4,835 nt of DNA. Origin: a virus (lineage: Duplodnaviria; Heunggongvirae; Uroviricota; Caudoviricetes). Positions 1-4,835 of the stretch are shown here, piece after piece. The stretch is from the IMG/VR virus record IMGVR_UViG_2700989363_000007; one strand, given 5' to 3'. Each line of letters starts with the position of its first letter. The first letter of the stretch is position 1. Made by a program: the position numbers and the translations under genes. The notes under the pieces are model-generated. The model saw only the letters and a program-made list of their open reading frames with translations, was not told the origin of the DNA and made no database searches.

Positions 1-36
1 CCGGCGGGCTGTCATAACACTGTGTTACCTGGCTAA

Positions 37-636
37 TCAGAATTTATAACCGACACCCACGATGAAACCGTCAGTGCGCCAGTCACCACTGCCGGAGCCT
101 TCATAAGCAATATCAATGGCCACGGATTCGGTCGGGTTAAACTGCACGCCAGCTCCCCACGCCAGAGACGTGTTGCTGTGGCGATCGTCATCACTTCCGG
201 TCAGCACATCGTGCGTTTTCCCCTTGTTGTCAGTTACGCGGAGATAATCCCCGGAGAACGTCGAAACACGGCTGTAAGCCACACCTGCCATCGCATAAGC
301 ACTGAACCATTCATTCACGCGTACAGATGGCCCCGCCATCATGCTGAACCAGCGGTTACGCACTGAATCTTCATGCCAGCGGGTATCGCTGTAATGCGTT
401 TTTTGCTCATCTTTGGCATTGGCATAACTGAATGACGTCACCAGCCCCAGCGTGTCCGTAAACTCATAACGGTATTTCACGTTAATGCCCTTCAGGTCAT
501 CACTGCCTGGCATATCAGTATGGGTCTGAAGATACCCGGCGCTTAGTGTGGACTGATGCTCTGCTGCGCTCGCTGGCGTACCAGCGGCAACCAGCCAGAC
601 TACTGCGGACAGAATAACAGCACATAATTTACGCAT
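37..636 (-). CDS. lom: Outer membrane protein Lom (Ail/Lom/PagC/OmpX family 8-stranded beta-barrel), phage moron gene
   Basis: 199-aa ORF with stop TGA at 37-39 and ATG at 634-636. N-terminus MRKLCAVILSAVVWLVAAGTPASA/AEHQ is a typical Sec signal peptide with an AxA cleavage motif. The mature protein has alternating hydrophobic/aromatic beta-strand patterning and ends in a C-terminal Phe (GYKF), the outer-membrane beta-barrel signature. Sequence closely resembles lambda Lom as I recall it, and the position immediately downstream of J matches lambda gene order. Confidence 0.93.
   Translation of the reverse strand: MRKLCAVILSAVVWLVAAGTPASAAEHQSTLSAGYLQTHTDMPGSDDLKGINVKYRYEFTDTLGLVTSFSYANAKDEQKTHYSDTRWHEDSVRNRWFSMMAGPSVRVNEWFSAYAMAGVAYSRVSTFSGDYLRVTDNKGKTHDVLTGSDDDRHSNTSLAWGAGVQFNPTESVAIDIAYEGSGSGDWRTDGFIVGVGYKF
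565..636 (-). other. Signal peptide coding region of Lom (residues 1-24, predicted cleavage after ASA)
   Basis: Positively charged N-terminus (MRK), hydrophobic core (LCAVILSAVVWLVAA), then small-residue ASA before AEHQ. Cleavage site is predicted by motif only. Confidence 0.6.
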
Positions 637-641
637 AATTA

Positions 642-647
642 CCTCTC
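642..647 (-). promoter_or_regulatory. Shine-Dalgarno sequence for lom
   Basis: Minus strand reads AGCGAGAGGTAATT-ATG. The GAGAGG purine-rich motif sits 5 nt upstream of the lom ATG. Confidence 0.5.
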
Positions 648-657
648 GCTTTTCTGC

Positions 658-684
658 AATAAAAAAGGCACCATTTCTGGTGCC
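658..684 (-). terminator. Rho-independent terminator downstream of J (minus-strand orientation)
   Basis: Minus-strand sequence GGCACCA-GAAA-TGGTGCC is a perfect 7-bp GC-rich stem (plus 667-673 / 678-684) with a GAAA tetraloop, followed immediately by TTTTTTATT (plus 658-666). It lies 20 nt after the J stop codon. On the plus strand the same hairpin is not followed by a T-run, so it is unidirectional. Confidence 0.72.
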
Positions 685-703
685 CGTATCTGGGTTATAA
701 AAT

Positions 704-3700
704 TCAGCTAATCGTGATGCCTGCAGTGGCTTTCTTCATCACAACAACCAGCAAATCGCTGATACTTGCTGTGGGATACCAGCCATTTACCAGCCATGCT
801 GACACCGAAAACTCCAGTGTCATGTGACCGTGACCGGCAGGCATATCAATAACGCCACTGTAAATCAGCGTATTATCCAGCGCGGTACGGTTATAAATTT
901 CAGCACCGTTTTTCCGCACTATCAGACGGCATGAGGAGTAAATATCAGTATGCTCTCTCTCATGCTTAGCGCCACTGAATGCCACAGCCGGAATAACAAT
1001 TTGCCGGTCAAACGGCTGATCGTCATAAACCCTGACGGTAATGGTCCCTGATGGCCACCGCTCCGGTGCCCGGGAGTCACGGGGGAAAGCTTTGCCCACT
1101 GTTTTAACGAGATCGCCTTCAATCTGGTTCGCGGACAGTTTTCCCAGAACCCGACAGTTCTCGTTAATCGTGACGTTGTTGAGCGTCCCGGAGTTCGCAT
1201 TCACGTTACCGCTGATATCGGCATTTTTCGCCGTCAGCCGCCCGTCCGGTGTCAGGGAAAATGCCGGAGGATTACCGCCGCTGGTAATGGTGGGAGCCGT
1301 CAGGCGTTTCAGGAACACGTCGTTCATGAATATCTGATCGCCCTGACCAACAAACATCGGCTTTGTGTTGCCATTCGCAGGATTAATCATCGCAATCCGG
1401 TCAGCAGCCAGAAGCACCTGACTCTGCATACCTGCTGGCGTATTCTCAATACCGGCTCCGATACCCGCAATATAAAGGCGTCCGTCCTTCATCTGCTGCA
1501 GTTTCACGGCCCACATGCTGTTCAGGTTATTATTTGTATCAACCTGAACTTTCTGTATCTGCTGGATTGCCGCGCTCTGATTTTCCAGTTTCTTATTGAC
1601 GGTCTGTGTGATTTCATTGCTGACATCCGTAATGGACGTCCTGATTTCAGCCAGGTCAGGCGCAAGCTGATCGTTATCAATCTGCGTCCACAGCTCCTGA
1701 GCCAGATGTGTTTTCCCGATTTTTTCTTTAAAAAAATTCAGGTAACCTTCCGCATCATCGCTCGCCCGACCGACGGCCTCCACGAATGCCGATTTGCCAA
1801 CGGTATTCACACTGCGGATATAAAAGTAATAATCATGGCCCGGCCTGATATTGATACTGGCGGCTATCCAGTACATCCCCGTGCCAAGATAGCGGGCTGT
1901 GGTTTCAACCTGCCTGATATCGGCAATCCGCTTTTCCGAAAACCAGAACTCAAACTGTACCGTCGGATCATAAACCGCAAGATGCGGCGTGGCGGTTATC
2001 TGAAAATAGCCCGGCGTCAGCTCAATCTGTGACGGCGCTGCCGGTGCGGCAATCCGGAACGATACCGACGCCGGATCGCCCTGCTGTCCCCATGCATTTA
2101 CTGCCCGGACTGTCAGCCTGTAGTTCCCCAGAGCCAGTTGTGTGAAGCGGTAAGTGGTTTCCGTCGTCCGGGCCGTGCTGACCAGCCGCTCACTGCCGTC
2201 ATCCGCTGCCACGGTCAGGCGAAGCATAAAGCTCACCCCCTTCACCACCTTCGGCGTGTCCCAGCGGGCCAGCACCTGGTATTCCCCGCTGTCTGCGGTG
2301 ACTTCGGCGGTCAGATGCTGCACTGCTGGCGGCGTGACACCATTCACCGTGCCGCTCTGGTTACCGTCAAAGTGCGCCCCGTTATCCACGATGGCTTCTT
2401 TCTCCGGTACATGCTGCACTGCAGTGATGGCATACGTACCGTCGTCGTTCTCACGGATACTCACACAGCGGAACAATCGCTGGTGCAGCGTCGGCAGCTT
2501 CAGCCCCCACACGCTGTACTCGGCAACGCCGTCAGGAACCCGGCTCACTTTCACCTTCACGCCGTCGGTGATGGACTGGACCTCCACGCTGACCGGATTG
2601 CCACTTCCGTCAACCAGGCTTATCAGCGTGGTGCCGGAGGATGGCAGCGTGATTTCACGGTCGAGCGTCAGCGTCCGGGTCTGGCTGTTCACCGCCAGCA
2701 CGCGCCCGCCGGTGCTGATACCGGCATAGTCATCATCGCAGATTTCAATGACATCGCCCGGTACATGGCGAAGCCCTTCGGCACCCACGCTGAAGTCCAC
2801 GGTCTGCGTCTCCAGCAGTTCTGTTTTAATCAGCCACAGCCCGGCGCGGTGCGCCTGCCCCCGACTGGTACAGCCAAACGCATCCATCTTTGTGACGTTA
2901 CGACCATAACGGGCAATGGCCTGCGAGTCCTCCACAAGCTCTGTGGCCGCCTCCCAGCCGTTATCCGGGTCAATCCAGTTCACTTCAACGGCATTATGGC
3001 GGTCTTTCAGGGCGCTGAAGCTGTAGCGGAATGGTGCACCATCATCCGGCATCACCACATTACTGCGGTTATAGGTCCACACCTTATCCGATGGTCGGTC
3101 CTGCACGAACGTCAGCGTCTGCCCGTTCCATACCGGCATACAGCGCATCGCCGAGCAGAAATCACTGAGCACATCCCACGCCTTACGTTGTGTGGTCAGG
3201 TAAGCGTTACAGGTGATGCGCGGCTCCGTACCGCCAAAGCCGTCCGGCACCGACTGGTCGCAATTCTGGCCGATGACATACAGCGCCCATTTGTCCACAT
3301 CCGCCGCACCGAGACGTTTCCCCATGCCGTAGCGCGGGTGGGTCAGCATATCCCACAGACACCAGGCCATGTTGTTGCTGTATGACGGTTTAAACGTCCC
3401 GTCCCAGATACCGCTGTATTGCCGCGTCTGCGGGTTATAATTCGACGGCACCTGCAGAATACGCCCGCGAAGATGATAATTACGGCTCACCTGCTGGCTG
3501 CCGAACTGCTCCGAATCCACCTGTACGCCGACCAGTGCCGTGTTCGGGTAGCACTGTTTCACATCGATGATTTCGGTGTATGACGACCAGAGCGTTTTGT
3601 TCTGCAGCTGGTCTGTGGTGCTGTCCGGCGTCATCCTGCGCATCCGGATGTTGAACGGGCGCGGCGGCAGATTATCCACCACTACCGAGGCCAGATACTG

Positions 3701-4183
3701 CGAGGTGGTTTTGCCCTTAATGGTGATGTCTTTTTCCGTCACCCAGCCACCGTTACGCTGTATCTGAACCAGCAGGCGGACTTCCGACGGATTCCGGTCC
3801 CCCTTTGAAGTGGTTTCCACCAGTGCCTGCACACCGAAGGTAAAGCGCAGACGGTCAATGTTTGCCGACGTGATGGTCCGGGTGATCGGCGTGTCGTATT
3901 TCACTTCCGTGCCCAGTACCGTCTCGGAACCTGATGATTCAAATCCCTCCGGCGGTGTCTGTTCCTGCTCACCTGCCCGGAACACCACCGTGACACCGGA
4001 GATGTTAGTATTCCCCTCACTGTCCAGCACCGGTGTACTGTTCAGCAGCACGCTTTTTAATCCATCCACCGGACCTTCAACCGGCCCTTCGCTGATGGCA
4101 TCGATCACACTCAGCAACTGCGTGGACTTCAGGTTGTCCTTTGCTTCGCGCGGGGTATGCCCCTTACTGCTGCCTTTACCCAT
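704..4183 (-). CDS. J: Tail tip host-specificity protein J (central tail fibre, receptor-recognition protein)
   Basis: 1159-aa ORF with ATG at 4181-4183 and stop TGA at 704-706. N-terminus [41 protein letters not shown] and long internal stretches match lambda gpJ as I recall it. Size (lambda J is 1132 aa) and position between I and lom fit. The C-terminal region diverges (see findings). Confidence 0.96.
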
Positions 4184-4195: not shown

Positions 4196-4205
4196 ATAAA
4201 CGACA

Positions 4206-4225
4206 AAACCGCCCGGAGGCGGTTT
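4206..4225 (-). other. GC-rich stem-loop in the I-J intergenic spacer (terminator-like)
   Basis: Plus 4206-4213 AAACCGCC and 4218-4225 GGCGGTTT are perfect inverted repeats around a 4-nt loop. On the minus strand the stem is followed by TTTTGTCGTTTAT, a U-rich tract. It sits between the I stop (4244-4246) and the J start. Confidence 0.4.
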
Positions 4226-4243: not shown

Positions 4244-4835
4244 TCAACGACCAATCACCACAACCTGACCACCGTCCCCCTCGTCTGCCGTGCTGATCTC
4301 CTGAGAGACAACACGTGACCCCACGCGCATTTCACCGTACAGAACAGGCAGAACATTGCCCTGGGCAACCATGTTGTCCAGTGACGAGAAATACGTGTTC
4401 TGCTTACCGTTATCCGTTGTCTGTGTACGGGGAGTTCTGGGTTTAGGGGCCAACATCTGGGCCACACCGCCAAGCACCATACTGGCACCGAGAGAAAACA
4501 GGATGCCGGTCATACCACCGGCCCCAATGGCTGCCCCCCATGCTGCAAGGGTGGCTCCGGCAGTAAAGAATGATCCGGCAATGGCGGCAGCCCCCAGGAC
4601 AATCTGGAATACACCACCTGACTTGGCCCCGGCGACTCTGGGAACAATATGAATCACAGCGCCGTCAGGCAGAGTCTCATGTAACTGCGCCGTTAACCCG
4701 GACGTGCTGACGTCCCGCCCGGCAATCCGTACCTGATACCAGCCGTCGCTCAGTTTCTGACGAAACGCCGGGAGCTGTGTGGCCAGTGCGCGGATGGCTT
4801 CAGCCCCCGTTTTCACACGAAGGTCGATGCGGCGG
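4244..4835 (-). CDS. I: Tail tip assembly protein I, 5'-truncated by the window edge
   Basis: Stop TGA at 4244-4246. Translation ...RRIDLRVKTGAEAIRALATQLPAFRQKLSDGWYQVRIAGRDV...EGDGGQVVVIGR matches the C-terminal ~195 residues of lambda gpI as I recall it. The reading frame stays open to position 4835 (upstream codons give RRIDLR), so the true start is beyond the window. The M at 4816 in the ORF track is an internal GTG (Val) codon, not the start. Confidence 0.93.
   Translation of the reverse strand, partial: RRIDLRVKTGAEAIRALATQLPAFRQKLSDGWYQVRIAGRDVSTSGLTAQLHETLPDGAVIHIVPRVAGAKSGGVFQIVLGAAAIAGSFFTAGATLAAWGAAIGAGGMTGILFSLGASMVLGGVAQMLAPKPRTPRTQTTDNGKQNTYFSSLDNMVAQGNVLPVLYGEMRVGSRVVSQEISTADEGDGGQVVVIGR

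Follow-up and report, generated by a model that had tools for sequence, protein, structure and literature searches.

A conserved terminator-like hairpin between J and a lom cassette lacking a recognisable promoter in the distal late operon of lambda-like prophages

The lom gene is a textbook case among prophage genes, credited with expression in lysogens and with promoting adhesion. In phage lambda the late genes are carried on an mRNA of about 27 kb originating at pR', on which J is the last essential gene and lom, stf and tfa lie just beyond it (PMC10695390); the logic of antitermination is described in PMC7547250. Lambda lom has been widely reported to be expressed in lysogens (PMC7067206, PMC1151598), and a further array study, in which lambda lom went undetected and whose authors remark that little is known of the lom promoter (PMC2147009), conflicts with PMC1151598. 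The lom gene of phi24B, a phage closely related to VT2-Sakai, was found to be expressed equally in lysogens and induced cells, independently of induction (PMC3342100). A preliminary description of the locus examined here started from the premise that lom is expressed in the lysogen from a promoter of its own, a premise which, given the conflict between the lambda array data (PMC1151598 versus PMC2147009), is not established.

The window, by which we mean the whole stretch of 4,835 nt that was analysed, covers the distal tail region of a lambda-like prophage, with its genes on the minus strand in the order I-J-lom. Many E. coli lambdoid phages match the window at 92-96% identity, and phage 2G7b has the same J-lom junction at 100% identity. 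A 121-nt stretch spanning this junction has 13,302 copies in 4,350 of the 5,426 complete E. coli genomes, with up to 12 copies per genome. The features of the window, in the direction of transcription, are as follows.

4244..4816, minus strand: tail tip assembly gene I (ORF of 190 aa; annotated as protein I in relatives)
4198..4225, minus strand: hairpin with U-rich tail in the I-J spacer (by sequence, folding energy and the terminator annotated there in Ayreon)
704..4183, minus strand: gene J, for the host-specificity tail tip protein (1159 aa), ending in TGA at 706-704
686..703, minus strand: A/U-rich segment of 18 nt from the J stop to the hairpin, containing the -10-like TATAAC at 699-694
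666..685, minus strand: putative terminator stem-loop (5' arm 685-678, GAAA loop 677-674, 3' arm 673-666)
658..665, minus strand: U-tract UUUUUAUU (UUUUUUAUU when U666 is included), with a mosaic joint directly after 658
637..657, minus strand: leader of the lom cassette, GCAGAAAAGCGAGAGGTAATT, 21 nt, with the Shine-Dalgarno sequence (SD) GAGAGG at 647-642
37..636, minus strand: lom (ATG at 636-634; 199 aa), an outer-membrane beta-barrel protein of the Ail/Lom family
1..36, minus strand: 3' flank of lom, in which 1-10 is the 5' arm of a second terminator whose remainder is cut off by the window edge

The same-strand order I-J-(lom)-stf is collinear with that of lambda, and late structural genes lie beyond the terminator. 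From homology to lambda-like phages, the Q gene and pR'/qut are expected to lie upstream, outside the 4.8-kb window.

The spacer between the J stop and the lom ATG (637-703, minus strand) is 67 nt long and reads, in the direction of transcription, AATTTTATAACCCAGATAC GGGCACCA GAAA TGGTGCCT TTTTTATT GCAGAAAAGCGAGAGGTAATT ATG. Its hairpin has the core GGCACCA-GAAA-TGGTGCC at 684-667, lengthened by a G685:U666 pair to a stem of eight pairs (seven Watson-Crick and one G:U; five are G-C) that is closed by a GNRA loop (GAAA). Directly 3' of the stem is the U-tract (T666-T661, A660, T659 and T658), which ends 21 nt before the lom ATG, and the lom SD begins 10 nt past it; the 18 nt between the J TGA and the first stem base at 685 leave the hairpin room to fold. 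In isolation the hairpin has a folding energy of -14.2 kcal/mol (z = -4.0), which none of 200 shuffles equalled, and a consensus terminator scan calls it a terminator. In these respects the preliminary description was correct: it had given a 67-nt spacer, a strong terminator at 658-684 some 20 nt ahead of the lom start, a lom SD about 10 nt past the U-tract, and no room for a lom promoter between terminator and gene. Its remark that the spacer is mostly occupied by the terminator was too strong, as the element takes up 27-28 of the 67 nt (about 40%).

A crude scan of the window for terminators found four candidate sites, where shuffles gave an expectation of 4.4, such that the count alone is uninformative and the case has to rest upon the J-lom site's own properties. 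That the site is not random is argued by the z-score of its energy, by its retention in 103 of 103 lom-anchored loci, and by compensatory substitutions in its stem. Taken together, the element has every sequence-level attribute by which an intrinsic (Rho-independent) terminator is recognised, and it would be expected to terminate transcription accordingly. Extra structure in the 101-nt context of the hairpin is not significant (z -1.5) and includes no competing antiterminator fold, and Rfam searched at a permissive threshold gave no match at the J-lom site, its sole match being a spurious lncRNA inside lom. The junction offers neither the competing antiterminator nor the known RNA family that would mark an attenuator or riboswitch. 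As an element, the J-lom hairpin is ordinary and very common, it belongs to a well-known class, and it has already been annotated in a public record.

Loci carrying lom were gathered from IMG/VR and GTDB genomes by way of the Lom protein, and are mostly close relatives. A hairpin of at most -9.7 kcal/mol, followed by a T-run, is present no more than 80 nt from the ATG in all 103 lom-anchored loci whose upstream sequence was long enough. The U-tract, the leader and the SD are nearly invariant in relatives, and the 18 nt preceding the hairpin contain three variable positions. The stem itself is found as GGGCACCA/TGGTGCC, GGGCGCCA/TGGCGCC or GGGCGTCA/TGACGCC, with G:U or mismatched intermediates being rare, and over 29 distinct sequences pairing is kept in 98.7% of cells. 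Compensatory double changes occur at two of the eight stem pairs (in 5 and 8 sequences) as G-C/A-U and C-G/U-A swaps; the resulting covariation score was matched by 0 of 500 shuffles, and controls with a slid partner were only 33-63% paired. Given the close kinship of the sequences and the confinement of variation to two of the eight pairs, this covariation is modest, and supportive rather than overwhelming. The same position in lambda is occupied by a non-homologous hairpin, CGTCCG-GGAA-CGGGCG followed by TTTTATTAT, and a lom allele of 47% identity (L245) has there yet another non-homologous hairpin, GGCACCT-CAGG-AGGTGCC, with a U-tract. The structure has been maintained in evolution, for which the unrelated hairpins at the J-lom position of lambda and L245 provide independent support.

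The same collection of loci yielded several ancillary observations. Rare stems with one or two mismatches (e.g. GGGCACCA...TGACGCC, in IMG/VR loci) resemble recombinants of the common stems with a crossover in or near the loop. One viral contig (L075, 1165-1945) has an IS3-family insertion just 5' of the hairpin, which replaces TATAAC and parts J from the terminator and lom; this contig was considered as a mosaic joint proving that the hairpin travels with lom, and was rejected as such because an IS3-family insertion is uninformative in this regard. A lambda-like J-lom upstream region, accompanied by a Lom 45% identical to that of the window, is also present in GTDB assemblies (L094-L104) from Neobacillus, Kitasatospora, Pseudomonas, Shewanella, Bradyrhizobium and others. 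Three of these contigs measure about 48.4-48.5 kb and several have roughly 1x coverage, and the sequences are almost certainly lambda DNA contaminating the assemblies.

Several phage matches to the junction stop exactly where the U-tract ends, at window position 658, and the phages concerned are without lom. In Lambda_ev087, mEp460_4F5 and Tritos the J stop is followed by ATTTTATAACCCAGATACGGGCGCCAGAAATGGCGCCTTTTTTATT, comprising the hairpin and then TTTTTTATT, and at once thereafter by TGTGGAGTGAATATG, the start of stf. In the lom-plus phage 2G7b the same stf start, TGTGGAGTGGATATG(stf), is placed after a lom-distal terminator, AGCCCGCCGG-TTCA-GGCGGGCTTTTTT, and lambda shares this layout of lom, second terminator and stf. 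The indel that separates lom-plus from lom-less phages measures 677 nt in 119 of 132 loci, and among 197 occurrences of the hairpin pattern approximately 90% are followed by the lom leader and approximately 8% directly by stf. Judged from these borders, lom is a precise cassette of about 677 bp made up of a 21-nt leader with its SD, the ORF, a 3' flank and a terminator of its own, and the J-distal hairpin persists independently of it, with only those 21 nt of the cassette preceding the ATG. The observation at the core of the preliminary description was real and its interpretation is partly supported; this independence of the terminator from lom had escaped it. Either insertion or deletion of lom could account for the two arrangements, and the upstream hairpin could originally have come with lom.

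With regard to the status of lom as a moron, two of the expected attributes are found and two are not. It constitutes extra DNA (the indel of about 677 bp) missing from otherwise collinear relatives, and it has its own downstream terminator, AGCCCGCCGG-TTCA-GGCGGGCTTTTTT, of -18.2 kcal/mol. A sequence-based test of the spacer and of J detected no sigma-70-like site that could serve as its own promoter, and its G+C content does not deviate, being 53.0% for lom, 52.7% for the last 600 nt of J and 56.1% for J as a whole.

The left edge of the window cuts the second terminator, AGCCCGCCGG-TTCA-GGCGGGCTTTTTT, of which positions 1-10 are the 5' arm. The 3' flank of lom, TTAGCCAGGTAACACAGTGTTATGACAGCCCGCCGG, is identical in lambda even though the Lom proteins are 45% identical, which suggests that lom alleles have been swapped between conserved flanks. 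Between the lom stop and the downstream terminator lies a perfect 13-nt palindrome, TAACAC-N-GTGTTA (15-27), which is also present in lambda, 2G7b and the K-12 Rac prophage; its loop is too short for an RNA hairpin, and it could be a candidate protein-binding site. In the Rac prophage (L242, 4390-4599) lomR is truncated at its 5' end, fused in frame to a tape-measure fragment (ynaA) and split by IS5. We rejected lomR, for which rich transcript maps exist, as a proxy for lom, since the J-lom junction and its terminator are gone there; the lomR-stfR terminator is intact.

A comparable arrangement precedes J. The I-J spacer holds the hairpin AAACCGCC-UCCG-GGCGGUUU (4225-4206) with the tail UGUCGUUU, about 12 nt ahead of the J SD; its folding energy is -16.2 kcal/mol (z -4.2), its U-tail is interrupted and weaker than that of the J-lom hairpin, and its layout is the same. 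The consensus terminator scan of the window missed this I-J hairpin. In the 12-kb tail region of 2G7b, the two best terminator-like sites on the same strand are those flanking lom. As J and stf are late structural genes that would hardly call for private promoters, a terminator placed right before the SD of the next gene is a trait of the distal late operon rather than of lom. The distal late operon of lambda-like phages is punctuated by hairpins at I|J, J|lom and lom|stf, and terminators coincide with mosaic joints.

Promoters were sought with a position weight matrix calibrated on lambda pR (12.9 bits), lambda pL (12.3 bits), lacP1 (10.6 bits) and pRM (9.3 bits), which covers sigma-70 only, such that activator-dependent or alternative-sigma promoters would escape it. 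By this measure there is no credible sigma-70 promoter in the spacer or in the 4 kb upstream of lom, and a built-in promoter scan likewise gave no hits on the gene strand of the window. The preliminary description had pointed to TATAAC at 694-699; its position and its weakness are borne out (3.8 bits, with the final T missing and no usable -35), and it lies in the spacer, not inside J as had been stated. The same hexamer is present upstream of stf in lom-less phages, is absent in lambda, and reads TATAGC, TTTAAC or TAAAAC in some relatives. The best gene-strand site of the window, CTGATA-17-TGAAAT (925-897, -35 at 925), lies within J, 261 nt before the lom ATG, and scores 8.8 bits as compared with a shuffle maximum of 10.5 +/- 1.25 bits. 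Sites of at least 8 bits are, if anything, depleted on the gene strand (1 seen versus 5.5 expected). The hexamers of the 8.8-bit site are invariant in 81 distinct sequences, a degree of invariance reached by only 15 of 361 frames. An unusual promoter embedded in J, which the preliminary description had offered as one of two routes to lom, finds no support in a gene strand that is poor in sites relative to shuffles and whose best candidate, at 8.8 bits, is confined to one J allele.

The depletion of sigma-70-like sites on the gene strand is, in its own right, consistent with selection against internal promoters in a late operon. Two further leads were rejected: conservation at synonymous sites of J, taken as a possible mark of a promoter embedded there, given the low diversity of the region and the limitation of the motif to one J allele, and a PhoP box such as might be expected from pagC, another member of the family, with no match at up to two mismatches. 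A direct repeat of 16 nt, GCTGAA(A/T)TTTATAACC, is present at 889-904 inside J and at 693-708 across the J stop and the spacer (0.01 expected by chance). The copy at 889-904 is confined to the J allele of the window and overlaps its best, weak promoter-like site.

The anatomy of the junction, its conservation and covariation, the borders of the cassette and the lack of sigma-70-like sites are direct observations, and the reading of them that we regard as probable is that an intrinsic terminator stands at the end of J within the late operon, with a promoterless lom cassette of about 677 bp behind it that is transcribed mainly by late readthrough. The genes stf and tfa are late structural genes downstream of the J-lom site, and in lom-plus phages stf follows lom and the second terminator; since stf is thus a late gene behind hairpins, the late, Q-antiterminated polymerase must read through them. 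We infer that the J-lom hairpin terminates transcription, is read through in a Q-dependent manner, and has an insulating role. During lytic growth, Q-modified polymerase from pR' would ignore the hairpins and place J, lom and the side-tail-fibre genes in one message, whereas in the repressed prophage unmodified polymerase would stop at the J-distal terminator and leave lom, stf and the sequence beyond insulated. The lom cassette sits exactly past the U-tract of that terminator, and its want of a recognisable promoter would make late readthrough the main route of lom transcription. Readthrough by Q-antiterminated late transcription had been the other route named in the preliminary description, and it fits the comparative anatomy: phages without lom have the same hairpin immediately ahead of the late gene stf. 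Should lom be expressed in the lysogen, the source would be leak-through, spontaneously induced cells or some weak start site. This late-readthrough model sits uneasily with the reports of lambda lom expression in lysogens, which imply a promoter activity or a leak that the model cannot place.

Several other explanations of the hairpin deserve consideration. It might act mainly after transcription, with the three hairpins (I|J, J|lom, lom|stf) of the antiterminated late transcript blocking 3'-to-5' exonucleases and thereby setting the stability of each segment of the polycistronic message; the presence of three stable hairpins at successive gene borders of an operon that is read through anyway, and a structure more strongly conserved than the sequence, are both in keeping with such a function, but an invariant U-tract right after the stem would be unneeded for it and points to termination. 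We hold this to be rather unlikely as the explanation of the element, noting that it is compatible with a terminator role and could add to it. An improbable alternative is that of a promoter-proximal attenuator, in which a weak promoter (either TATAAC at 699-694 with a start near 687, or CTGATA-17-TGAAAT at 925-897 in J) fires in the lysogen and the hairpin keeps lom at a low level, serving either as a terminator that leaks or is regulated or as a stem-loop stabilising the 5' end. Such a view would accommodate the reported transcription of lambda lom in lysogens, the retention of TATAAC across several different J C-termini, and the invariance of the J-internal hexamers in 81 distinct sequences, which only 15 of 361 frames equal. 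However, at 3.8 bits TATAAC is without its key final T and a -35, it is equally conserved before stf in phages without lom, it is absent in lambda, and it was destroyed by the IS insertion in L075; the J-internal candidate, for its part, occurs in one J allele only and scores below pRM, and the 101-nt context (z -1.5, no Rfam match) contains no alternative fold through which attenuation might operate.

It is also conceivable that a promoter overlaps the terminator itself, with its -35 in the hairpin and its -10 in the U-tract or leader (TCGTCC-17-TATAAA in lambda, TTTATT-17-AATTAT in the window), which would result in a very short or leaderless lom mRNA. The leader is indeed invariant, and the lambda candidate is the top site in the 400 nt before lom, at 6.9 bits with a -10 that ends 18 nt before the ATG. 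Scores of 6.2-6.9 bits nonetheless fall in the random range (21 sites of at least 6 bits versus 24 expected), and the candidate of the window would have its -10 overlapping the ATG and its transcription start within lom, so that we consider this highly improbable. Least credible, in our estimation, is a Hfq-binding sRNA derived from the 3'UTR, whereby the end of the J mRNA (U-rich stretch, hairpin and poly-U) would be released as a regulator. The combination of AUUUUAUAAC, the hairpin and U6 does resemble the published Hfq-binding module, and prophage sRNAs are common in pathogenic E. coli; yet those of EHEC and EPEC prophages (AgvB, AsxR, StxS and most Pas) map by the Q, pR' and lysis genes and not at J-lom, the EHEC Hfq-CRAC study neither mentions the hairpin in its text nor includes its sequence in the supplements, and the 18 nt ahead of the hairpin vary at three positions. 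Identity of the hairpin with Pas, AgvB, AsxR, StxS or HnrS itself was rejected, as those sRNAs that have been placed lie by the Q, pR' and lysis genes (locations are not given for PasB and HnrS) and the hairpin is not among the Hfq-CRAC supplements.

Returning to late readthrough past a J-distal terminator, one may ask how far this applies to lom at large. We tentatively propose, as a possible but doubtful generalisation, that the commonest class of lom (that in the J-lom-stf arrangement, in about 80% of complete E. coli genomes) is a promoterless late gene between two terminators and not a moron with its own promoter, that Lom is made mainly in the lytic cycle, and that the 'lysogen expression' of lambda reflects leak-through or a spontaneously induced subpopulation. 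Were this true, another role for Lom would be called for, such as in lysis or release. The exact borders of the cassette and the promoterless appearance of the commonest lom class are a modest refinement of the existing picture. Given a 21-nt leader, a conserved terminator ahead of it and the independence of that terminator from lom, an ill-defined gap becomes a simple question open to test, namely whether every cell of a lysogenic culture makes Lom or only the induced ones do. The coincidence of terminators with mosaic joints also bears on how accessory genes slot into phage genomes with late expression left undisturbed.

The closest described counterpart is the J|lom terminator annotated in Ayreon (MF807953, 18454-18494), which is the same element in the same position, with the stem variant GGGCACCAGAAATGGTGCC and the U-tract; terminators at I|J and lom|stf were marked by its depositors as well. 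The annotation in Ayreon is computational only, and the J C-terminus upstream of it is another allele. The J-lom hairpin of lambda, CGTCCG-GGAA-CGGGCG with UUUUAUUAU (NC_001416, ~18922-18946), follows the same plan, in which a tetraloop hairpin with its U-tract comes some 18 nt past the J stop, and the SD GAGAGG and then the ATG come after roughly 10 nt more; it differs from the present locus in an unrelated and weaker stem (-9.7 kcal/mol), a Lom of 45% identity and the absence of TATAAC. Lambda tR' is similar in being an intrinsic terminator inside the pR' unit that is overridden by Q-modified polymerase (PMC7547250, PMC10695390), but it stands just past the promoter and defines 6S RNA or StxS, whereas the J-lom site is more than 20 kb downstream and between structural genes. 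The classical morons, such as HK97 gene 15 and the lom of Stx phages of the VT2-Sakai, 933W and phi24B type, are likewise accessory, present in some relatives, and equipped with their own downstream terminator; unlike lom of the window, whose cassette has just a 21-nt leader behind a terminator and shares the G+C content of its neighbours, they have a promoter of their own. In the short-tailed Stx2 phage VT2-Sakai, lom is preceded by a 90-nt spacer of 76% A+T without a hairpin, its only terminator being the downstream one, and a promoter-like site of 10.0 bits is located 60 nt upstream of its ATG.
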